This document shows positions 10,843 to 27,023 of a DNA stretch of 32,000 nt, in pieces. The notes under the pieces were generated by a model, which searched no databases, had not been told where the DNA came from, and saw only the letters and a program-made list of their open reading frames with translations. Source of the stretch: Candidatus Lokiarchaeum ossiferum (GTDB lineage: Archaea; Asgardarchaeota; Lokiarchaeia; Sigyniarchaeales; Promethearchaeaceae). Positions within the stretch are counted from its first letter, which is position 1, and each line of letters starts with the position of its first letter. The translations under genes and the position numbers were made by a program. Where the stretch lies: NCBI GenBank assembly GCA_025839675.1, contig CP104013.1:3330001-3362000 (forward strand), in the 5' to 3' direction.

Positions 10843-10963
10843 AAGGAAAATTTTTTTTACCTTTAGAAAGACATTTACCTATAAAAAACAAACAAACATA
10901 GCGAAAAATTGTATCACTAAACAAAAAACATGATTATTAAATTAACCGGGATTAGTAAATAGA

Positions 10964-13321
10964 ATGGCATTAACAACAAGCGATGAACTTCAGAAACAAT
11001 TGGCAGTTATATTCGGTTTTAAAGGACAACTTGAGTTGGAAGTTGGAGAAATCGTAGGGATTGGAAGTTTATCAAAAAAAACAACAGAGTATTTGATTAA
11101 AAATGTTTTAAACTATCTAAATGCCTATAATTCAATGTTACGAGATTACGCTAATTGTCAATTGCATTCAATCGAATTTTCGCTTGACAATCTTGGTGAT
11201 CCCAATGATATTCAACTAATGCCAAAATCAATGCTTTTTATTCCTGGAGAATACAAAGATTGTAACACTCTATTACTATTATTGGCACCTGAAGCGAGTT
11301 TATTGAACCCTAAAACAGCGAAAAGTGCAGTGGATAATTTAGGAAAATTATATTTTGAAGTTGAAGAAGCTTTAAGTAGGAATGAAATCACCAAAGAACA
11401 AAAACAAGAGGTTTTAACTAAATTTGCGAGGCGATTCGCTTTAAAGCTTCAAGGTAATGTAATTGAAGGAAAATGGAATCGAAAACTTGTAGGACTTAAA
11501 ACTAATTCAGATGATGTTTCATATCTTTCAGTAAATATACAAAAGGAATACCTTTGGGAAAATAAAGAGATAATTCCTAAAAATCATCGTTTTAGAATAA
11601 TACGTACACCTTTAGATGAAAATGATCAATTTGACTTCTTAAAATACAAACTAAGTCAAAGTACCGTTTTTGTAATAACGAAAAACACCTTTCATCTTAC
11701 TTCTAATTTGTTGCACATTGCAAATACAGGAACCATCAATGATCTACATCGAGCTTTATTAATTCTTCTCCTGAAAAATTTTATAGTCTTCTTTCCAGGC
11801 CAAGAAGATTACATTTCCTTTGACCAATTTAAAGATAGCTTGCTGAATTTTATAGCTTTTATCGATTCAATTAAAAAAGATTTCTTTATCCTCTCAGATA
11901 ATGTTGTTAAAAGCGGAATTCAAATGGAATTCAAAAATTTGCCTCAAACTATAATTAGTGAATTTCAAATTGAACAAGATGGTTCCTTGAGAAATCAATT
12001 TTACACCGATTTACAGGATTGTTTTATCAATTATATTATAGAAAATAGACAAGATTATCAAAACTCAAAAAATTTCCGAGCTTTTGAACTAAAAACACCT
12101 TTTCTTTTTATGCAAGAAAGCTTAGATCTAGTTTTAAACAAAATCAAAATTGCTTTACCTGGCTATTTTACCCATGAATTATTAACAAATCATGCTCAAA
12201 CATTCATAGAATTATTACAAAAGGAGTTCGATTCAATAGGAAAGAAGCCTATTATCGCTTTAGGCCTGAAGTATCTTGAAAAGTATTCAAAATATATTCA
12301 GAATCAAATTGATAACAAATATTTAGAGTCAATTGTCCGAAATGAAAGTCAAGTTCAAAGTTTTTTTAATAAAATAGCTAAAGAATCAATTGAACCATTT
12401 ATATCCGGTGTTTCTATTGAAACTGAAGACTTACTTAGTCTTTGTGGTTTTATTCTAGCAGATATTCCTGTAGCAATTCATCACATTGAAATATTGATGA
12501 AATACCGAGTTGAGATTGAGTTTCTATGGGGATTAGTACTTCGTGCTTCCACCTTGCAGAGATTTATTAAAGAATATCCAACGGAGCTTACGTTTGATCC
12601 CCAAACTTTTTGCACTCAATTTATCGAATTCTTACAAAGAAAACGTCTTGGAGGCTTTCAGCTAGTTTGGAAAAACGAAATTTTTGCTTATATTCAAGAA
12701 TTTGCAAATCAATATCAATCGAAGTATTTGCTTGAAAGAGAACAGAAAATTTATTGGTCTAAACAGAAAATTGTCTCCCTGTTTATAGACTATCTTGGAA
12801 AAAAAGTGGATGAAAGCACTACATTAGAAGGGTTTTTAGTTCCTTTGAAGAAATATTTGGACAATATTGCAATGAAAAACGTCAACAATCGTATCGTATT
12901 AAAAATTGTTGATCTGTATTCTGAAGGATTGGAAGTATTTTCTCAATTTCCAGATTATATGCGTCAAGTCTTTTATAAAACTCTTGAAAACTATGAAGAC
13001 ATTAAAATCCACCTCCAAGCATCTACTTTTATAGGTCCATTAAAATCGATTGATGATGCTTTTACAGAAGATATTGAGTTCAGTTCATCATTATCTTATA
13101 AAAAATCGTTTTTCAACTATATAATTGAACATGAAATGAAATATTTTAGTAAATTATTTGCAGAACCAAAGAATATAATATTAAAATCACTTGAGAATGA
13201 AACATTTGATGGAAAAGTACTTTATCATCACATAAACTTCCAGTCTCTTGGAGATAATTTTTCGAAGCTAATGATAAGTTCAAATTATCAATCAGTAAAG
13301 CCACGATTCAAACGGATGTGA
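10964..13321 (+). CDS. Large hypothetical protein (785 aa), soluble, apparently all-alpha; no recognisable domain
   Basis: This is a long uninterrupted ORF with genome-typical composition. I found no TM segments and no Walker A, DEAD or nuclease motifs. Its stop is 4 nt from the next start. Confidence 0.8.
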   Translation: MALTTSDELQKQLAVIFGFKGQLELEVGEIVGIGSLSKKTTEYLIKNVLNYLNAYNSMLRDYANCQLHSIEFSLDNLGDPNDIQLMPKSMLFIPGEYKDCNTLLLLLAPEASLLNPKTAKSAVDNLGKLYFEVEEALSRNEITKEQKQEVLTKFARRFALKLQGNVIEGKWNRKLVGLKTNSDDVSYLSVNIQKEYLWENKEIIPKNHRFRIIRTPLDENDQFDFLKYKLSQSTVFVITKNTFHLTSNLLHIANTGTINDLHRALLILLLKNFIVFFPGQEDYISFDQFKDSLLNFIAFIDSIKKDFFILSDNVVKSGIQMEFKNLPQTIISEFQIEQDGSLRNQFYTDLQDCFINYIIENRQDYQNSKNFRAFELKTPFLFMQESLDLVLNKIKIALPGYFTHELLTNHAQTFIELLQKEFDSIGKKPIIALGLKYLEKYSKYIQNQIDNKYLESIVRNESQVQSFFNKIAKESIEPFISGVSIETEDLLSLCGFILADIPVAIHHIEILMKYRVEIEFLWGLVLRASTLQRFIKEYPTELTFDPQTFCTQFIEFLQRKRLGGFQLVWKNEIFAYIQEFANQYQSKYLLEREQKIYWSKQKIVSLFIDYLGKKVDESTTLEGFLVPLKKYLDNIAMKNVNNRIVLKIVDLYSEGLEVFSQFPDYMRQVFYKTLENYEDIKIHLQASTFIGPLKSIDDAFTEDIEFSSSLSYKKSFFNYIIEHEMKYFSKLFAEPKNIILKSLENETFDGKVLYHHINFQSLGDNFSKLMISSNYQSVKPRFKRM

Positions 13322-13325
13322 AACT

Positions 13326-15773
13326 ATGAGTGAAATATCAGCAATAAAACGAAGTAGAGTCGCACAAGAAGGTGCGCGACGCTTTTTCCAGACTACAGAA
13401 TTAATTGCAAGTCATTTAAAACGGAGTTCGGATAAAAATCTCGTTTTTGCCCTTTCCTCAAAGAAAAATAATCTTTCGAATTTATTAGCAGCATCTTGCG
13501 CAATTCATTGTTTTAACTATTTAGGGATTCGGACAAAAACGGATGAGCAAATGGTCTCTCAAGTTACCAGTATGGAAGCTTTTGAAACGGTTGAAAAACG
13601 AGAAATCTATAAAGAATTTCTAGATCTAATTGGTTCCTCAATACAACATGAAATTTCATTATCTTTATTAGAGTTAAATTACGAAGAACAAATTCTCACT
13701 GCAATGATTGAAAAAAAAAATGTATATGAAGAAAGGTTTATTCAAAATCTGACCGATCAGCTCGAAGAACATTTAATCAAGTCTTTAAACCAATATCCAA
13801 CCGTATTTTGGATTGATCATGTTGGAGAATTAACTGGTTTCATCCCCTTTGTAAAATCACAAATACTGGAAGAAACTGCCGGATTAAAAGCAACTGCCAT
13901 TGATCTTGAAAAAAATTTAAAAGGGGAAGAGAAAGGCGATCGTTATATAGAACTTTCAACAATTTTCCATTTAATAAACAAAATGCAGAAGAGTTTTGAA
14001 TTTTCATCTACACGAGATTTAAAGTTAGAAACTTTTCCAATTAAAAAAATCTTAAACCAAATTATTGCTTATCGTCTAAATTTTTATCCTATCTCAAAAG
14101 TCGGGCTGTTCTGTTTCCAAGATGCCACCAAATTAAAAAAAATAATTTACAAGAAATTGTTGGATGCTGATACCACTCCTATTGATTATGAAAGCTTAGA
14201 GTTAGATCTAACTGTTCTTATTAGAGAAAATATTATTGAACAAGCCCAAAAAGGACCAAATAAGTTTGTCTATTTTCTCCAAAATCTCCTAGAATTGACT
14301 TTTGAGGAGACTTTCTCAGTACTCTCCAGATTTGGAGTGTCCAATGTCTCATTATTTTGTCATATTCTTTCTTTTGATTATAATCAATTTAAAAATGATA
14401 TTTCATTAAATCAATTATCCAAAATGGATTTCCTTACTGCTGATTCGCAGAAATCACTGATTTGGAATGTAGAACAAAAGTTAAATGAATTAAAATTAAT
14501 TTCCTTATCTCGTTCAGAACGTTCAGTTGAAGAAATCTTGAATAATTTTGAGGAGTCTGAAATCCTTGTTTTAAAAAATATTTGTAGGACTTTAAAGATT
14601 GAATTTGATGATTTGAGGCAAGTTTTTCAAAAGAAGATGATCATTGAAAAAATTATTCGAAAAAAATATCCTCTAAAGGGACCAACGTCCTGCTATTCTA
14701 TGGTATTCGATATTCCTGAGATTCTCGCTAATCTTTGTAAAACCATTTATTTCACATTTTTCCGCAAAATCAGCTGCCAATTCGCGAGGGTTCTTGAGAC
14801 TTATGTGAAGATTAAAGAGGATAAAGGATTGTATCTATTGGGATTAAAACGAATCTTTGAATCTACAGCGAACGAAGAATGGGTTGTCATCAAAATTGAA
14901 GAGCTGATTATTCAAAGATTAATGCGACGCCAAGAAGAATTAGCAATGATTTTTAATGCAGAAAATGATGCCTTTTTGGTTAACTCCTTTATATATGCCC
15001 GTTTATTTGACTGTAATTTATCGGATGCGAATGAAATTCTGCACAACGAACCTAGTTTCTTCTATGGAGATTCAATTGGCTTGGGATTACCTAAGGATAT
15101 GATCTCTCCTGTTTCATATATTTTTGCGTATGACTTGCTTTATCGCTTTAAGGATAATCAGGAATTTCTTAAAATTCAAAAAGAACAACTTAAAGAAATG
15201 AGAAACCAAAAATCCACGGAAAAAAGGGATGAAATTAAGAAAGTTCAAAAATTAAATACTTTAAATTGGATTGATAAAAAAATTACCAGCAGTCTCATGT
15301 CTGTTTCAGCTGTTTCAGTCAACCCCACCACATTATATTGGAATGAGAAAGACACACAAATTGTAATCGATAATTTGATGATTCATAGTAAATTAAAAGA
15401 TCGAAAAATTTGTTCTGAATGTAATTGTGATGTGTCAAGTTCTAGTTGTGAACACCCTAATTCTCATAGGAAAGCTAATGCTATCGATTTAATGGCACAA
15501 TATTATCATTTTGCCTTGACTCGGATCAAACAGAATTGGGAAAAAACAAAAGTTCCCACGATTCAAGAATTAACTGATAATATTCATATCTGGTTAAATG
15601 AGATAATGTTTCCACGACTTAACCGAAATATCACTGAAAATGATATTGATCAAATGATTGAAGGTGAACGTCGGGGACTATCCCAAAAAATCGCAATAGC
15701 CATTGGTCAAAAATTAGATAAAGCCATTTATAAAAAGTTCAAAGCAAATTTAAAAAAAAAACGAGGAACCTAA
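13326..15773 (+). CDS. Large hypothetical protein (815 aa), soluble, mostly helical, with a C-terminal Cys/His cluster
   Basis: The start has SD-like GGATGTGA 5 nt upstream, inside the end of the preceding gene, which suggests translational coupling. A CSECNCDVSSSSCEHPNSH cluster lies at nt 15411-15467. No NTPase or nuclease motifs were found. Confidence 0.8.
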   Translation: MSEISAIKRSRVAQEGARRFFQTTELIASHLKRSSDKNLVFALSSKKNNLSNLLAASCAIHCFNYLGIRTKTDEQMVSQVTSMEAFETVEKREIYKEFLDLIGSSIQHEISLSLLELNYEEQILTAMIEKKNVYEERFIQNLTDQLEEHLIKSLNQYPTVFWIDHVGELTGFIPFVKSQILEETAGLKATAIDLEKNLKGEEKGDRYIELSTIFHLINKMQKSFEFSSTRDLKLETFPIKKILNQIIAYRLNFYPISKVGLFCFQDATKLKKIIYKKLLDADTTPIDYESLELDLTVLIRENIIEQAQKGPNKFVYFLQNLLELTFEETFSVLSRFGVSNVSLFCHILSFDYNQFKNDISLNQLSKMDFLTADSQKSLIWNVEQKLNELKLISLSRSERSVEEILNNFEESEILVLKNICRTLKIEFDDLRQVFQKKMIIEKIIRKKYPLKGPTSCYSMVFDIPEILANLCKTIYFTFFRKISCQFARVLETYVKIKEDKGLYLLGLKRIFESTANEEWVVIKIEELIIQRLMRRQEELAMIFNAENDAFLVNSFIYARLFDCNLSDANEILHNEPSFFYGDSIGLGLPKDMISPVSYIFAYDLLYRFKDNQEFLKIQKEQLKEMRNQKSTEKRDEIKKVQKLNTLNWIDKKITSSLMSVSAVSVNPTTLYWNEKDTQIVIDNLMIHSKLKDRKICSECNCDVSSSSCEHPNSHRKANAIDLMAQYYHFALTRIKQNWEKTKVPTIQELTDNIHIWLNEIMFPRLNRNITENDIDQMIEGERRGLSQKIAIAIGQKLDKAIYKKFKANLKKKRGT

Positions 15774-16179: not shown

Positions 16180-16992
16180 TTAGAGAAGGTGGACAATCTT
16201 CCGCCAATTTAATTTAGGGTTTCCATGAAGCAATATGCATTCCTCGATTTGTTCTTGTAGAATGAGGGGATCATATAACCAAGCTTCATCTTTACTAAAA
16301 GAAAGGCACTTTATATTTGGTATATTTAAAATACGTTTCATTAAAAGTCCATAGGTTGCAACTTGGGGGAGGGATCTGAGAAAATGGCCTTCTGGCTTAT
16401 AATCTGCAATAATTAAGTTATTATTTGCAAAATCATATAAAATTAAATCAATATGGCCAGTTAATGATCGTCTGTAAGAAAAATTGAACGAGTTTTTATC
16501 TTGAGGAAGAAAATCAGTAATTCTCTGCTGTTTGCGAGTCCAAACTGGTGTTTCTATTGACAAGGCTTCTTCAATGGTAAGTAATATATTAGTGAGAATT
16601 TCATCATGACCTGGTTTAAAATTCAATATATCAGTCTCTGCATATTCTGAAAAGAGATTTTGAGCACTTGCAAGGATCTTGTGAACATAGCTATCTAAGC
16701 TATTTTTCATTTCTGAAGTCCACTTATAATGGCGGATTAATTTTTTTTCGATGAATTCTTTTGAGATTTGAGGTTGAACCCCCCGCTTTAAACCTTTAAT
16801 ACGAAAAGAAGAACAGCGGGTTATTTTATTGTCATTGAATAAATCGTGGGGTATTTTATTCTGATAGATCATTTGGAAAAAATCATCCAATCGAGTTCCA
16901 ATCTCAGAAGGCATCTTCGAAATCACATCTTGTCGTTTAGCCCATTTAAACTCATAAACAATGCCATTGTGTTGGAATCTTCGATTAATCAT
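16180..16992 (-). CDS. PD-(D/E)xK nuclease superfamily protein, RecB/Cas4-like core (paralog 1)
   Basis: Motifs occur in order: E..P.W (IETPVWT), GHIDLILYD, IIADYKPE (D-x-K) and QVATYG (the QxxxY typical of the RecB/Cas4/lambda-exo clade). It aligns along its full length with the upstream paralog. Confidence 0.7.
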   Translation of the reverse strand: MINRRFQHNGIVYEFKWAKRQDVISKMPSEIGTRLDDFFQMIYQNKIPHDLFNDNKITRCSSFRIKGLKRGVQPQISKEFIEKKLIRHYKWTSEMKNSLDSYVHKILASAQNLFSEYAETDILNFKPGHDEILTNILLTIEEALSIETPVWTRKQQRITDFLPQDKNSFNFSYRRSLTGHIDLILYDFANNNLIIADYKPEGHFLRSLPQVATYGLLMKRILNIPNIKCLSFSKDEAWLYDPLILQEQIEECILLHGNPKLNWRKIVHLL

Positions 16993-17098: not shown

Positions 17099-17908
17099 TT
17101 AAATGCTCGGAAGAACTGATCTCCAAGATAGATTCGGATTTCCATATTGTAAAAGATATTGCGGAATACTTGTTCTAACAATTTCAGGATCATAAACCCA
17201 AGCTTTTTCTTTACTGAAAGAAACACATTTTACATTTCTGATCTTTAAAACCCGTTTCATCACTAAGCCATAGGTTGCCACTTGTGGAAGACTACGTAAT
17301 AAATAATTTTCGGGTTTATAATCAGCAATAACCAAGCTTCCATCCGTTTCATCAAAAAGAAGAAGGTCTATATGTCCGGTGAAAATTTCATTACTCATGC
17401 ATGTATATGGAGTGAGTTGTAAATCTTGATTAATAAGTGCACGGTCTGTTGTGGTCCAGATCGGAACTTCAACTGCTAGTGCATTTTTATTCAGCTGTAA
17501 AATTTTGTCCAATACAGGACCATGTCCTGGATTCTTATCCATTGTGCTAGAAAAAATGTCAAACCATATTTTGGCCATTTTGGGAAGTTTTTGGATTTCT
17601 GGAGAGATGTAAGATAATTGGTTTTTCTCATCAACTAAATGAATCTGCTTGCTATTTATGAGCTTTATTCCAATTTTCTTTCGTGCATCTTTCTGCAATC
17701 CTTTCAATCGAAAACTGGAACAACGAAGATATTCAGAACCATTAAATATATGGTCAGGATATTCCTTTGTACAAACATAGTTATAATATGTGAGTAATCG
17801 AGAGCCAAATCTATGTGAAATAAGTGGATGTTTGTGTCGTGCAGTAATCCATTCCATTAGATATTCAATACGATTATGTATGAATTGGCGTTTTTCGACT
17901 GATACCAT
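17099..17908 (-). CDS. PD-(D/E)xK nuclease superfamily protein, RecB/Cas4-like core (paralog 2)
   Basis: It shares motif blocks with paralog 1: RCSSFRLKGL, PGH, VEVPIWT, TGHIDLLLFD, VIADYKPE, LRSLPQVATYGLVMKR, KCVSFSKEKAWVYDP and GNPNLSWR. GGAGGAT lies 11 nt upstream of the ATG. Confidence 0.7.
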   Translation of the reverse strand: MVSVEKRQFIHNRIEYLMEWITARHKHPLISHRFGSRLLTYYNYVCTKEYPDHIFNGSEYLRCSSFRLKGLQKDARKKIGIKLINSKQIHLVDEKNQLSYISPEIQKLPKMAKIWFDIFSSTMDKNPGHGPVLDKILQLNKNALAVEVPIWTTTDRALINQDLQLTPYTCMSNEIFTGHIDLLLFDETDGSLVIADYKPENYLLRSLPQVATYGLVMKRVLKIRNVKCVSFSKEKAWVYDPEIVRTSIPQYLLQYGNPNLSWRSVLPSI

Positions 17909-17998
17909 TTAGAAAATATCCTCCAAAAGCTAAAGCAATATATTTCATTTAAGGATTCGGATTAATCGCTTAATGTAAATTGCTGATAAAAGAAGGGG

Positions 17999-18030
17999 AA
18001 AAAAAAATAAACCGGTGTGTGAGGTTTAAG
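17999..18030 (-). terminator. T9 run (minus strand) with a weak preceding hairpin, downstream of the histone gene
   Basis: The minus strand reads ...AAACCTCACACACCGGTTTATTTTTTTTT immediately after the histone stop. The plus-strand A9 run is at 17999-18007. Confidence 0.5.
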
Positions 18031-18032
18031 GT

Positions 18033-18299
18033 TTATTCAGCTGCAATAATGTCTGCGGCGGTTAAGCGTTTACGCTTGTCTGCTTTGACCATTTTTACTG
18101 CTTCTTTAGTTACTTCAGTAGCAACTTTGGTTAATTGTTCAATTAACAATTCAACTGCATTTTCTGCAACTAATGAAGCACCTTCGTTCTTCATTAAACG
18201 TCTTATTGGAGCTTTGGCAATGTAAGCACTTCGGGTAGCTGGTTTAGCTGCCTTTTTAGGTGCTGCTTTCTTTTTTGCTGGTGTTTTTTTTTTAGCCAT
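18033..18299 (-). CDS. Archaeal histone-fold protein with a ~22-aa Lys/Ala/Pro-rich N-terminal tail
   Basis: The histone fold IAKAPIRRLMKNEGASLVAENAVELLIEQLTKVATEVTKEAVKMVKADKRKRLTAADIIAA aligns by eye to HMfB-type histones (PIAPIGRIIK...RKTIKAEDIELA). The tail is MAKKKTPAKKKAAPKKAAKPATR. The start is ATG 18299, preceded by AAGTGATTATT; the ORF-track 'MIIM' start is a GTG inside the SD. Confidence 0.9.
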   Translation of the reverse strand: MAKKKTPAKKKAAPKKAAKPATRSAYIAKAPIRRLMKNEGASLVAENAVELLIEQLTKVATEVTKEAVKMVKADKRKRLTAADIIAAE

Positions 18300-18359
18300 A
18301 ATAATCACTTAAATTTTTTATATCCTCCGCTAGGATATAAATTAAATATCACTCACCCC

Positions 18360-24419: not shown

Positions 24420-27023
24420 CTATGTGATATCTTCAACTTTAGCCCCTACTGAATGTAGACGTTTTTCTAAGGTGATTTTATCATTTTTTCGTTTAGGATA
24501 TGACTCTAAAAATTTTTCTGGAGATTTTTTAATAATCGCCAAACATCTTAATAGAAGGTCATAGGCTTTGAATGGTCGTCGGGCTTCACTTGTGTTCGCC
24601 TCACGAAGGAATTCTAAGTAATTTTTTACGTCTAGCTCTTCTTCCTTAAATGTAGAAATATCAATATCATCAAATTCTTTGGGCCTACTTTTATATTGCG
24701 TTTTGACTTCTTGCTTCCATTCTTCCTCTTTGATTTCAAGTTTTTGCAGCTTTTCGACGAATTTAATATGCTGATCTTCTAGCTCTAGTTGTTTTAGCAA
24801 GATAACTAATTTTTTACACTCAGCAATAGCAAAAGGCCATTCTCCCGCTTTTTCATGGGCTCGCAGCTTTTTCTTTATTTCTTTAAGTTGCTTCTCGCGT
24901 TCTTCCAGCGCTTTCTGTTCGGCTTCTTCCCGCGCTTTTTGTTCCGCTTCTTCTCGCACTTTCTGTTCGGCTTCTTCCCGCGCTTTTTGTTCCGCTTCTT
25001 CTCGCACTTTCTGTTCGGCTTCTTCTCGCGCTTTTTGTTCGGCTTCTTCCCGCGCTTTTTGTTCCGCTTCTTCTCGCACTTTCTGTTCGGCTTCTTCTCG
25101 CACTTTCTGTTCGGCTTCTTCTCGCGCTTTTTGTTCGGCTTCTTCTCGCGCTTTTTGTTCGGCTTCTTCCCGCGCTTTTTGTTCGGCTTCTTCTCGCACT
25201 TTCTGTTCGGCTTCTTCTCGCGCTTTTTGTTCGGCTTCTTCTCGCACTTTCTGTTCGGCTTCTTCTCGCGCTTTTTGTTCGGCTTCTTCTCGCGCTTTCT
25301 GTTCCGCTTCTTCCCGCACTTTCTGTTCGGCTTCTTCTCGCGCTTTTTGTTCGGCTTCTTCTCGCGCTTTCTGTTCCGCTTCTTCCCGCGCTTTTTGTTC
25401 CGCTTCTTCCCGCGCTTTCTGTTCGGCTTCTTCCCGCGCTTTTTGTTCGGCTTCTTCTCGCGCTTTCTGTTCGGCTTCTTCCCGCGCTTTCTGTTCGGCT
25501 TCTTCTCGCGCTTTTTGTTCGGCTTCTTCTCGCGCTTTCTGTTCCGCTTCTTCCCGCGCTTTTTGTTCCGCTTCTTCCCGCGCTTTCTGTTCGGCTTCTT
25601 CTCGCGCTTTCTGTTCGGCTTCTTCCCGCGCTTTTTGTTCGGCTTCTTCTCGCGCTTTCTGTTCGGCTTCTTCCCGCGCTTTCTGTTCGGCTTCTTCTCG
25701 CGCTTTTTGTTCGGCTTCTTCTCGCGCTTTTTGTTCGGCTTCTTCCCGCGCTTTTTGTTCCGCTTCTTCCCGCGCTTTCTGTTCGGCTTCTTCTCGCGCT
25801 TTCTGTTCGGCTTCTTCCCGCGCTTTTTGTTCGGCTTCTTCTCGCGCTTTCTGTTCGGCTTCTTCTCGCGCTTTTTGTTCGGCTTCTTCTCGCGCTTTCT
25901 GTTCCGCTTCTTCCCGCGCTTTTTGTTCCGCTTCTTCCCGCGCTTTCTGTTCGGCTTCTTCCCGCGCTTTTTGTTCGGCTTCTTCTCGCGCTTTCTGTTC
26001 GGCTTCTTCCCGCGCTTTCTGTTCGGCTTCTTCCCGCGCTTTTTTCTCGCTCTCAATTATATTTTCTTTCTTCTTACTTATATTATCTTCAAATTGACTT
26101 ATTTTTTGATTCCAAGTCTTTATTTCTTCAAATTTTTCTAATTTTTTAACAATTTTAAGAATCTCTTTCGCACTAGTTATTCCTGATCCCCAGTCCTCAT
26201 CAAGTTCGTTTTTCTTAATTAATTCTACTAATTGTTCATAATCTGCATTTAATTTATTTTCTGCGACCTGTTTTTGCCGTTTTGCCTCTTGGGCGTTAAA
26301 AATTTCTTCTTGTTGTTTCAATTTGACTTGTGAATTTTTCCAAAACCGGATTAAGCTGGAGTCATCCGATTCTTCTAGTATTCTTAAAATCTCTTCTAAC
26401 ACATGCTTTGCTTCTAAAAACGCATTTTCTTGATAAAATTTTTCATAGGATGTTTGGATTTGTGAACATTTTTCTGAGATGTTCTTTTCTTTCTCCGAAA
26501 TATTTGTTCTGTTTATATTTTTGACAATTTCCTCATATTCTTCAATTAAAGCTACATTTTTAATCTTATCTGCATATTCAATTATTTTTCGAGTTTCTAT
26601 CAATGCTTCATCAAATTGCTTTTTAGCTAAATACTGAGATACTTCAATTTTATGTTTCTCAATGTTTTCTAATATTTCTGCTTCAAATTGATCCCATTCA
26701 TCGATATGGGATTGGAATTCATCTTGTGAAATTTTTAGAATTTGTAAGAAATCCATTGTCTCAAGACGTAGACCTTCAACGGTAAAATGACGCAGAATTG
26801 TAATATCTGGATTTCGTTCTAAAATTTGCCCCTCGATCATTGGAACTTTATTTTGAAGATCACGCGAAACTCGTTCACCAATCCAAATGTAAAGCCGTTT
26901 TTGATGGTAAAAGTAAACTGCTATGATATTTATATTAATAAAAGAATTTTTCAATTTTTCTGCAGGAATAGACACGATAGTTCCATCTGTATGCAGTTTA
27001 TAAGCAATATAAGGGGGGTTCAT
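24420..27023 (-). CDS. Gelsolin-like-domain protein with helical repeat modules and a 47-copy AREEAEQK tandem octapeptide array
   Basis: This is an 867-aa ORF. The N-terminal ~100 aa read ...NIIAVYFYHQKRLYIWIGERVSRDLQNKVPMIEGQILERNPDITILRHFTVEGLRLETMDFLQIL, which resembles the gelsolin-repeat pattern (hydrophobic strand, hYhWhG, helix, xVxEGxExxxF). The array occupies nt 24912-26039. TTTAAATAAAATG lies about 25-35 nt upstream of the ATG. Confidence 0.85.
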   Translation of the reverse strand: MNPPYIAYKLHTDGTIVSIPAEKLKNSFININIIAVYFYHQKRLYIWIGERVSRDLQNKVPMIEGQILERNPDITILRHFTVEGLRLETMDFLQILKISQDEFQSHIDEWDQFEAEILENIEKHKIEVSQYLAKKQFDEALIETRKIIEYADKIKNVALIEEYEEIVKNINRTNISEKEKNISEKCSQIQTSYEKFYQENAFLEAKHVLEEILRILEESDDSSLIRFWKNSQVKLKQQEEIFNAQEAKRQKQVAENKLNADYEQLVELIKKNELDEDWGSGITSAKEILKIVKKLEKFEEIKTWNQKISQFEDNISKKKENIIESEKKAREEAEQKAREEAEQKAREEAEQKAREEAEQKAREEAEQKAREEAEQKAREEAEQKAREEAEQKAREEAEQKAREEAEQKAREEAEQKAREEAEQKAREEAEQKAREEAEQKAREEAEQKAREEAEQKAREEAEQKAREEAEQKAREEAEQKAREEAEQKAREEAEQKAREEAEQKAREEAEQKAREEAEQKAREEAEQKAREEAEQKAREEAEQKAREEAEQKAREEAEQKAREEAEQKVREEAEQKAREEAEQKAREEAEQKVREEAEQKAREEAEQKVREEAEQKAREEAEQKAREEAEQKAREEAEQKVREEAEQKVREEAEQKAREEAEQKAREEAEQKVREEAEQKAREEAEQKVREEAEQKAREEAEQKALEEREKQLKEIKKKLRAHEKAGEWPFAIAECKKLVILLKQLELEDQHIKFVEKLQKLEIKEEEWKQEVKTQYKSRPKEFDDIDISTFKEEELDVKNYLEFLREANTSEARRPFKAYDLLLRCLAIIKKSPEKFLESYPKRKNDKITLEKRLHSVGAKVEDIT
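24888..26039 (-). repeat. 24-bp coding tandem repeat: 47 intact units (24912-26039) plus one degenerate unit (24888-24911)
   Basis: The unit is GCG CGR GAA GAA GCS GAA CAR AAA (minus strand). 1128 nt / 24 = 47 exact in-frame units. The flanking degenerate unit encodes ALEEREKQ. Confidence 0.95.

Follow-up and report, generated by a model that had tools for sequence, protein, structure and literature searches.

A translationally coupled pair of large orphan proteins in Candidatus Lokiarchaeum ossiferum and its relatives among Asgard archaea

Introduction

The genomes of Asgard archaea have been searched intensively for relatives of eukaryotic machinery, and nearly half of their genes are without an assignment. 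Two adjacent genes of Candidatus Lokiarchaeum ossiferum, here named A and B, raise the question of what such genes may encode. They lie in a stretch of 32,000 nucleotides of contig CP104013.1, referred to as the window, in which positions are counted from the first letter. An initial annotation, made from the letters alone, had described A and B as a two-gene operon for orphan proteins and as an obligate pair, possibly a scaffold with remote eukaryotic relatives. Do the two genes belong together, are they related to any known family, and what could their products do?

The comparative analysis reported here shows that A and B are vertically inherited, expressed and translationally coupled, that they form a new family which is restricted to Asgard archaea as far as detected, and that a third gene, tm, for a small membrane protein accompanies them in Lokiarchaeia. 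With respect to function, we tentatively favour, at somewhat less than an even chance, a stable cytoplasmic heterocomplex of A and B for which Tm provides the membrane dock and which serves as scaffold or adaptor.

Results

Gene pair and signals of translational coupling

The open reading frame (ORF) listing and the sequence confirmed the coordinates and lengths given for the two genes (Table 1), with A comprising 785 aa (91.8 kDa, pI 6.1, computed from the sequence) and B comprising 815 aa (95.2 kDa, pI 8.2). A was 100% identical to its L. ossiferum database entry. The window version of B matched the NCBI L. ossiferum entry (P0023) at 99%, not 100%, one difference being C701 in the window versus Tyr in P0023; the differences reflect either strain variation or assembly variation. 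Paralogy of A and B was ruled out by hhalign (probability 0.1%). Neither protein contains a Walker A motif, and no 19-aa window reached transmembrane (TM) grade (maximal Kyte-Doolittle values of 1.77 for A and 1.29 for B), in agreement with the initial annotation. The host is an Asgard archaeon, as had been suspected; the presumed compact genome is at odds with a source contig of 6.27 Mb.

The TGA stop codon of A and the ATG start codon of B are separated by the 4 nt 'aact'. A Shine-Dalgarno-like (SD-like) sequence for B inside the end of A had been proposed as a sign of tight coupling, and the comparison of loci bears this out. The SD-like GGATGTGA differs in one position from the GGAGGTGA that other lineages have at the corresponding site. 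Manual inspection of 16 loci gave A/B junctions of -8 to +15 nt, often as an ATGA- or TAATG-type overlap, and GGAGG, GGAGGTGA and similar motifs preceded the start of B by 6-12 nt in most of them. Upstream of A, an MFS transporter gene is followed by an AT-rich spacer of 121 nt, the only sizeable non-coding gap before A. The TATAAAAA element within this spacer is a possible archaeal TATA box of the operon.

Table 1. Features of the A-B locus, with positions given in window coordinates
Feature	Position	Strand	Description and basis
TATAAAAA element	10880..10887	+	77-84 nt upstream of the A start codon (ATG); read from the sequence
Gene A	10964..13321	+	NEF87_002840, putative first subunit; ORF, homologues, AlphaFold 2 model
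SD-like GGATGTGA	13314..13321	+	Overlaps the stop codon of A, 5-12 nt before the B start codon (ATG); putative translational coupling site
Gene B	13326..15773	+	Putative second subunit; almost wholly helical, conserved more than A
Most conserved core of B, aa 487-680	14784..15365	+	Conservation analysis of alignments
Zinc-knuckle-like C696-x2-C699-x8-C708-x-H710 in B	15411..15455	+	Alignment; flanked by short beta-strands in the model
Gene tm, 94 aa	15833..16117	+	Two TM helices, aa 12-29 and 38-55; probable third operon member
PD-(D/E)XK-like tandem pair, ~270 aa each	16180-16992 and 17099-17908	-	Convergent with A-B-tm, outside the transcription unit

Distribution and conservation among Asgard archaea

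A word-index search retrieved 22 homologues of A and 17 of B, all of them Loki/Hel-type Asgard sequences. When 1.84 billion representative proteins were searched with a HMMER profile, 84 relatives of B were retrieved, and every match with a named organism was of Asgard origin (Lokiarchaeota, Helarchaeota, Thorarchaeota, Jordarchaeia or unspecified Promethearchaeota); the profile search with A added no members to those already found. In total, 106 related loci were gathered. For 104 of these and the window, ORFs were called, proteins were clustered, and the loci were dereplicated at less than 70% identity of B, which resulted in 42 lineages. In 37 of the 42 lineages, which belong to several Asgard classes, gene A immediately precedes B and shares its strand. 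Of the five others, three end at contig edges and two (L022 and L024) represent a variant lineage described below. The obligate pairing of A and B postulated initially is thus supported by adjacency in every lineage with upstream sequence except this variant.

Full-length homologues of both proteins reached down to ~20% identity. In loci of Helarchaeota, Thorarchaeota, Jordarchaeia and unnamed Promethearchaeota, A was ~19-25% identical and the pairing with B was kept. The ORF of 872-915 aa before B in Thor/Jord-type loci was barely recognised by BLAST and was assigned to the A family by hhalign (99.8%, E 1.5e-28, ~600 columns). A further lineage, L105, pairs a divergent A (hhalign 99.1%) with a shortened B. 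In this locus (L105:4673-8809, GCA_054387895.1), an A of 774 aa is followed after 3 nt by a B of 602 aa that ends before the C-terminal third with its zinc knuckle (see below), which suggests that the C-terminal module of B is separable.

Between L. ossiferum and Promethearchaeum syntrophicum MK-D1, A and B are ~49-50% identical, a divergence comparable to that of the neighbouring Sua5 (55%) and MFS (44%) proteins, indicating that A and B are constrained over their full length. In strain MK-D1 the orthologues of A (DSAG12_00801), B (DSAG12_00802) and tm (DSAG12_00803) were transcribed at 163, 200 and 150 reads per kilobase per million (RPKM), the two nuclease genes that follow (DSAG12_00804 and 00805) at 190 and 197, and the MFS gene at 212 (Imachi 2020, PMC7015854, Suppl. 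Table 3). These transcript levels are roughly average and mutually similar, and the orthologues carry no COG, arCOG or eukaryotic signature protein (ESP) label (PMC7015854). The transcription in MK-D1, together with full-length homologues down to ~20% identity, identifies A and B as real genes rather than chance ORFs. A full-text search of papers gave no mention of the locus tags of the pair.

The combination of large orphan proteins with a nuclease and a small membrane protein is reminiscent of some defence loci, so that an anti-virus defence system or a mobile-element cargo was considered. PADLOC and PHROGs profiles matched no component, and a search of 2.9 million viral contigs revealed no relative. 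Moreover, A and B are single-copy genes at a stable syntenic site among housekeeping genes and diverge in step with their host, the opposite of patchy defence islands. Of the explanations weighed in this study, defence or cargo appears the least probable and is hardly to be expected.

A third gene and its inversion together with the pair

The initial annotation had envisaged a two-gene operon. The coupled pair stood up to comparison; the operon probably includes three genes, as the gene of a small membrane protein, tm, had been missed. A tm gene, coding for a protein of ~90 aa, was found on the same strand as the first or second gene after B in 29 of the 42 lineages, comprising practically every Lokiarchaeia-type locus with downstream sequence. 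An alignment of 72 Tm sequences revealed a conserved loop L-R-x-x-G-x-N-G and a charged C-terminal tail, first acidic and then basic. The spacing between B and tm is usually 48-195 nt, and in some loci tm is located behind an inserted gene. In Thor/Jord loci, tm was not found adjoining the pair. We regard tm as the probable third operon member and probable membrane anchor.

The metagenome contig Ga0209427_10004752 (L095, ~5.0-9.3 kb) carries A-B-tm in inverted orientation between otherwise unchanged flanks. The usual gene order is c8, c6, PALP, Robl, A, B, tm, PD, c10, c12, TGT (Robl, Roadblock gene; PD, PD-(D/E)XK-like gene), and that of L095 is TGT, c12, c10, PD, A, B, tm, Robl, PALP, c6, c8. 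The PD gene is now upstream of A and the Roadblock gene downstream of tm. Because A-B-tm alone was inverted, these three genes behave as one unit, and the Roadblock and nuclease genes as flanking genes.

Extra genes directly after B were observed in L003 (12862-14301) and L023 (5402-6682), also in L036 and L098. Three or four Helarchaeota-type lineages carry the gene of an unannotated helical protein of 426-479 aa between B and tm. The insert proteins of L003 (479 aa) and L023 (426 aa) had no match in Pfam and were similar neither to each other nor to the HEAT-repeat protein encoded after B in Jordarchaeales.

Searches for known families

The orphan status assigned to both proteins was upheld by every search performed. 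Pfam and NCBIfam gave nothing above noise for A and B, and Pfam scans of all family members gave scattered sub-threshold matches only. Three of 21 A sequences matched ARL2_Bind_BART (best E 0.0024), and one or two B sequences matched PCI, Pex26 and histone models; all of these were treated as noise. Single-sequence and profile searches of PDB sequences retrieved nothing for A or B. In a Foldseek comparison with 350,542 PDB chains, the best E-values were 0.31 for A and 0.65 for B at TM-scores of ~0.1, none of them significant, and A had no match below E 0.3 among viral models. The Pfam scans gave no significant match to a helicase, ATPase, OB, HTH or any further nucleic-acid domain.

Among the weak Foldseek rows, members of the ClyA family of bi- and tripartite alpha-helical toxins (Hbl, Smh, Ahl, Xax) were present, with HblL1 and SmhA for A and AhlC, XaxA and Hbl-B for B, all at E >= 0.75 and TM-scores <= 0.17. 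These toxins are likewise elongated helical-bundle proteins encoded by adjacent genes. However, A and B are twice as long, are cytoplasmic with no secretion signal seen, and are encoded by vertically inherited, housekeeping-like genes.

Predicted structure of protein A

The AlphaFold 2 model of A, calculated from a 21-sequence alignment, had a predicted local distance difference test score (pLDDT) of 81.6 and a predicted template modelling score (pTM) of 0.76. Residues 1-172 form an N-terminal alpha/beta domain with the order b-b-a-b-b-b-a-a in the model: after a helix at 6-12, two strands (14-20, 26-31) are followed by a helix (38-63), three strands (65-76, 89-97, 100-108) and two helices (116-137, 144-167). 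A beta-hairpin (185-212) leads into a helical body (219-725), and a three-stranded sheet (731-742, 754-761, 766-773) closes the C-terminus. The strands predicted at 14-108, 185-212 and 731-773 contradict the description of A as an all-alpha protein. The predicted order of the N-terminal domain is that of longin domains and is close to the sandwiches of roadblock, GAF and profilin proteins. Among the weak top Foldseek rows of the N-terminus were GAF/PAS sensor, Mon1-Ccz1-Bulli and profilin folds, all at E >= 0.3. In the alignment, I16, G18, G28, G32 and G34 are conserved in the first two strands, and neither an Arg nor a Gly-Pro is.

The initial annotation had suggested that A and B could be remote homologues of eukaryotic alpha-solenoid or tethering scaffolds. 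Known alpha-solenoid and CATCHR tethering scaffolds include importins, nucleoporins and exocyst/COG/HOPS. Protein size, the long helical regions and high helical content of both proteins, the Asgard host and the HEAT-repeat protein encoded after B in Jordarchaeales would agree with this proposal. The searches do not sustain it: no Foldseek row reached E <0.3, and the importin and nucleoporin rows of B, at E >= 1, were interspersed with unrelated helical proteins. Profile searches of PDB and Pfam had no match, including none to a repeat family, and the ends of A are rich in beta-structure. Nor did the HMMER search produce a eukaryote-attributable match, as all profile matches with a named organism were Asgard. 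Such a kinship is therefore considered very unlikely.

Conserved core and Cys/His cluster of protein B

For B, the AlphaFold 2 monomer model from a 15-sequence alignment was all-helical overall and less confident (pLDDT 70.9, pTM 0.54). Over 88 sequences, 59 columns are at least 93% identical. The most conserved core (Table 1) comprises the motifs R488-x2-E491, W519, K-I-E-E-L-I (523-528), R535-Q-x-E538, S-P-x-S-Y (594-598), D603, R607, T-L-N-W-I (645-649) and N-P-T-x-L-Y-W-x-x-K-D (666-676). Residues 496-643 (window positions 14814-15254) had a pLDDT <50 for most of the stretch, though inside the best-conserved region. This part of B may need a partner to become ordered, or 15 sequences may have made too shallow an alignment for the model. 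The coincidence of best conservation and lowest monomer pLDDT would fit a core surface that orders only with its partner.

Near the C-terminus of B, a C-x2-C-x-C-x6-C-x-H-x3-H cluster had been annotated at nt 15411-15467. It is located there, and only four of its residues, C696, C699, C708 and H710, are conserved, being invariant or near-invariant in Lokiarchaeales; the L. ossiferum entry at 99% identity has Tyr in place of C701, and H714 is variable. Among 37 full-length lineages, 12 show the general form C-x2-C-x7-9-C-x1-2-H (Lokiarchaeales, the L023 lineage, the variant lineage with L022, L024 and L106, and Thor/Jord), and all four ligands are kept wherever the segment is kept. In one large clade of 25 of the 37 lineages, Helarchaeota included, a 25-aa deletion removes exactly this knuckle. 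The pattern points to an ancestral zinc-knuckle-like element, a putative zinc site, that was lost once; an origin of the cluster as lineage-specific insertion was rejected. Since it is deleted in 25 lineages, the knuckle appears dispensable for the core function. With zinc-knuckle and zinc-ribbon modules of the CxxC...CxH type it shares four ligands in two close pairs and the flanking short beta-strands; it differs in being embedded in a helical protein of 800 aa and in its absence from a whole clade. No zinc-ribbon model of Pfam was significant for members of the B family.

The conservation of B also invites an enzymatic explanation, in which B, or A and B together, would be a new all-alpha enzyme with the invariant acidic and basic residues as active site and with A as PAS/GAF-like regulatory or sensor subunit. 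Many of the 59 conserved columns are charged or polar and kept down to ~20% identity (E15, E97, E109, D164, E209, R488, E491, E525, R535, Q536, E538, D603, R607, D676 and H687), the best weak fold rows of the A N-terminus are of GAF/PAS type, and the divergence rate resembles that of the neighbouring enzymes. However, the searches matched neither protein to a known catalytic motif or fold, terpene-synthase-type rows for B remained at E 2.8-6.4, and conserved charges in long helices also fit salt-bridged interfaces. We consider an enzyme improbable and retain the membrane-docked scaffold or adaptor as the preferred reading.

Neighbouring genes

The window represents ordinary chromosome and encodes SerRS, a radical-SAM protein, Sua5, an MFS transporter, PALP enzymes, a phosphoesterase, an amylase-family protein and EamA; searches for tRNA genes and Rfam families in the window gave no match. 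The two PD-(D/E)XK-like genes downstream of tm are tandem paralogues (37% identical). The motif residues E147, D182, D197-Y-K199 and Q210-x3-Y214 are invariant in 11 sequences, and this combination of core and QxxxY identifies a RecB/Cas4-like pattern of the PD-(D/E)XK nucleases, with a sub-threshold match to Pfam PDDEXK_1 (E 3e-4, 21.2 bits versus a cutoff of 22). Sequence searches gave no PDB relative of this family. One or two such genes of ~240-270 aa occupy the second or third position after B on the opposite strand in 27 of the 42 lineages (Lokiarchaeales and the L004-type clade), in which the wider synteny differs.

This association could indicate a role in nucleic-acid metabolism together with the flanking nuclease, for instance as DNA repair or processing scaffold, with the knuckle and the basic tail of B binding DNA or RNA. 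The intact nuclease motifs, the similar transcript levels of the nuclease genes in MK-D1, the pI of B, its CxxC...CxH knuckle and its K/R-rich tail are compatible with such a role. Two Thor-type loci (L019:2730-5295, L020:449-2004) may be added, in which a divergent DUF123 gene and a same-strand MBL-fold (Lactamase_B) gene are located just upstream of A; their adjacency may be lineage synteny or a second nuclease/hydrolase association. On the other hand, the nuclease gene is convergent and not co-transcribed, has no counterpart in the L003 clade, the variant lineage or Thor/Jord, and stayed in place when A-B-tm was inverted in L095. Moreover, most lineages have lost the knuckle, no nucleic-acid domain was significant, and a dedicated membrane-protein partner would be unusual for a repair complex. 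A nucleic-acid role is accordingly given a low probability.

On the other side of the pair, 15-18 lineages, all of them from one highly syntenic clade, carry a Roadblock/LC7 gene in divergent orientation to A. Its adjacency, like that of PALP and PyrI, is attributed to inherited synteny and not to functional linkage, as PyrI and PALP are equally conserved in this clade. In the variant lineage (L022:225-6306, L024:354-6163), B is encoded without an adjacent A, and the divergent partner is an unrelated protein of ~550 aa with a coiled-coil-like centre and, judged by sequence, beta-rich-looking ends. A hidden A homologue in this partner was looked for, and no signal was obtained. The B proteins of L022 and L024 are only 38% identical to each other, whereas a convergent GTPase is 77% identical, and the gene order has changed. 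The hallmark of MglA is the replacement of D-x-x-G-Q by T-x-x-G-Q. The L022/L024 GTPase carries the sequence VYTCAGQ and its best PDB matches were to MglA at E 1.5e-24 versus Rab7 at 5.5e-8, which places it in the MglA family. In a third variant locus (L106:72-4380), the ~550-aa partner is kept, and a different gene and no GTPase follow downstream. A Ras/Arf-like GTPase is encoded 1.1 kb after B in L018, and in Jordarchaeales (L021:10388-11584) the gene directly after B codes for the HEAT-repeat protein mentioned above (HEAT_2 E 2e-26, Adaptin_N E 2e-16).

Relation to small GTPases

These neighbours suggest a refinement of the scaffold reading rather than a contrary one: a regulator or effector platform for small GTPases of the MglA-, Arf- or Rag-like type. 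The longin/roadblock-like domain of A would bind the GTPase as MglB or longin heterodimers do, and B and Tm would position the assembly at the membrane. Roadblock/LC7 (PF03259) and longin domains are alpha/beta sandwiches around a five-stranded antiparallel sheet, in the order b-b-a-b-b-b(-a-a), which dimerise via the edge of the sheet and bind a small GTPase. The predicted longin order of the A N-terminus argues for this proposal, as do the weak fold rows of the GAF, Mon1-Ccz1-Bulli and profilin type, given that roadblock, profilin and longin folds have a common structural core (Tran et al., PMC10933270). Further points in its favour are the MglA-family GTPase retained beside B despite the altered gene order, the Ras/Arf-like GTPase of L018 and the Roadblock gene next to A. 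Established longin/roadblock regulators of GTPases (MglB-MglA, Mon1-Ccz1, FLCN-FNIP, C9orf72-SMCR8 and NPRL2-NPRL3) resemble the pair in having two co-expressed large subunits; further points of likeness are the predicted longin-type strand-helix order at the N-terminus of A, the predicted membrane-proximal site and the MglA neighbour in one lineage.

Several results weigh against the proposal. A roadblock identity of the A N-terminus received no support at the profile level: the hhalign comparison of this domain (71 sequences) with 23 neighbouring Roadblock sequences gave a probability of 0.1%, equal to that of seven unrelated control families in this comparison of hidden Markov models (HMM-HMM). 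No Pfam longin or Robl model matched A or any of 21 family members, and no fold row was significant. Unlike the established regulators, the pair has an alpha/beta domain in A only; B is all-helical with no longin or roadblock domain, and the remaining ~600 residues of A are without counterpart. In heterodimers of the FLCN-FNIP type, each subunit has a longin domain and then a DENN domain. A GP motif and an Arg finger are located between the first two strands (PMC12290439). A does not conform to these longin-DENN proteins, as no conserved Arg or Gly-Pro is present between strands 1 and 2, and it has no DENN domain, the body after residue 219 being all-helical. The Roadblock neighbour is limited to one syntenic clade and stays put when A-B-tm inverts, the 32-kb window contains no GTPase, Roadblock gene or P-loop ORF, and L106 has no downstream GTPase. 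With many GTPases per Asgard genome, some chance adjacency is to be expected. A missing adjacency is in turn uninformative, because the GTPases of MK-D1 are generally located outside the operons of their RB or longin partners (Tran et al. 2024, PMC10933270).

Positive evidence for a GTPase link is thin, and the MglA neighbour, like the PD-(D/E)XK link, is only a lead. We regard a GTPase platform as unlikely on present evidence, and slightly more so its specific form, in which A-B(-tm) would be an Asgard-specific, membrane-anchored regulator or effector of MglA-like or Arf/Rag-like GTPases built on a cryptic longin/roadblock-like domain of A.

Other features of the window

Between the nuclease genes and a PALP gene, two small ORFs overlap (18033-18308 on the minus strand and 17980-18225 on the plus strand). 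The minus-strand ORF of 91 aa is likelier the real gene, since it has counterparts at the same position in Lokiarchaeales loci (a 7-member cluster). An ORF of 867 aa on the minus strand (24420-27023) contains a repeat array at 24900-26042 with 47.6 tandem copies of a 24-nt unit, translated as (AEQKAREE)n. These ~380 residues resemble an ER/K-type single alpha-helix and would act as spacer between globular ends. The array explains an anomaly in GC content (0.53) and AT-skew (-0.97). A Pfam match of this ORF to 'Cornifin' was discarded as low-complexity artefact, and its N-terminal '...LYIWIGERVS...' is presumably reminiscent of gelsolin-type domains.

Discussion

The scaffold or adaptor reading combines the conserved pairing with the predicted properties of the three proteins. 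From the genetics, a heteromeric complex is plausible. Physical contact of A and B, docking at the membrane and a non-enzymatic adaptor role are what we infer from the data. One mRNA with translational coupling would give rise to A and B and favour equal amounts of both. In Lokiarchaeia, the charged cytoplasmic tail of the two-helix Tm is probably what holds the complex against the cytoplasmic side of the cell membrane. There, the complex would most likely serve as membrane-proximal scaffold or adaptor, as neither subunit has a recognisable catalytic domain. The N-terminal alpha/beta sandwich of A, with its PAS/GAF/longin/roadblock-like topology, could function as ligand- or partner-binding module, and the conserved polar core and the zinc knuckle of B could provide the surfaces for binding A and a client.

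The module amounts to ~180 kDa of protein and is maintained as coupled pair in at least four Asgard classes and expressed in culture. The label of a eukaryote-like system does not fit it. As neither a known family nor a solved fold matches, it offers a clean candidate for a part of cell biology that is particular to the lineage, for instance polarity, protrusions or the organisation of membranes. Its presence in both cultured models, L. ossiferum and P. syntrophicum MK-D1, makes it directly open to study. If the GTPase lead were true, the module would help to pair Asgard GTPases with their partners, which is usually impossible from gene order (Tran et al. 2024). If the longin/roadblock reading of A were correct, A-B would be an independent archaeal counterpart of the eukaryotic longin heterodimers and a missing link between Asgard GTPases and their partners.

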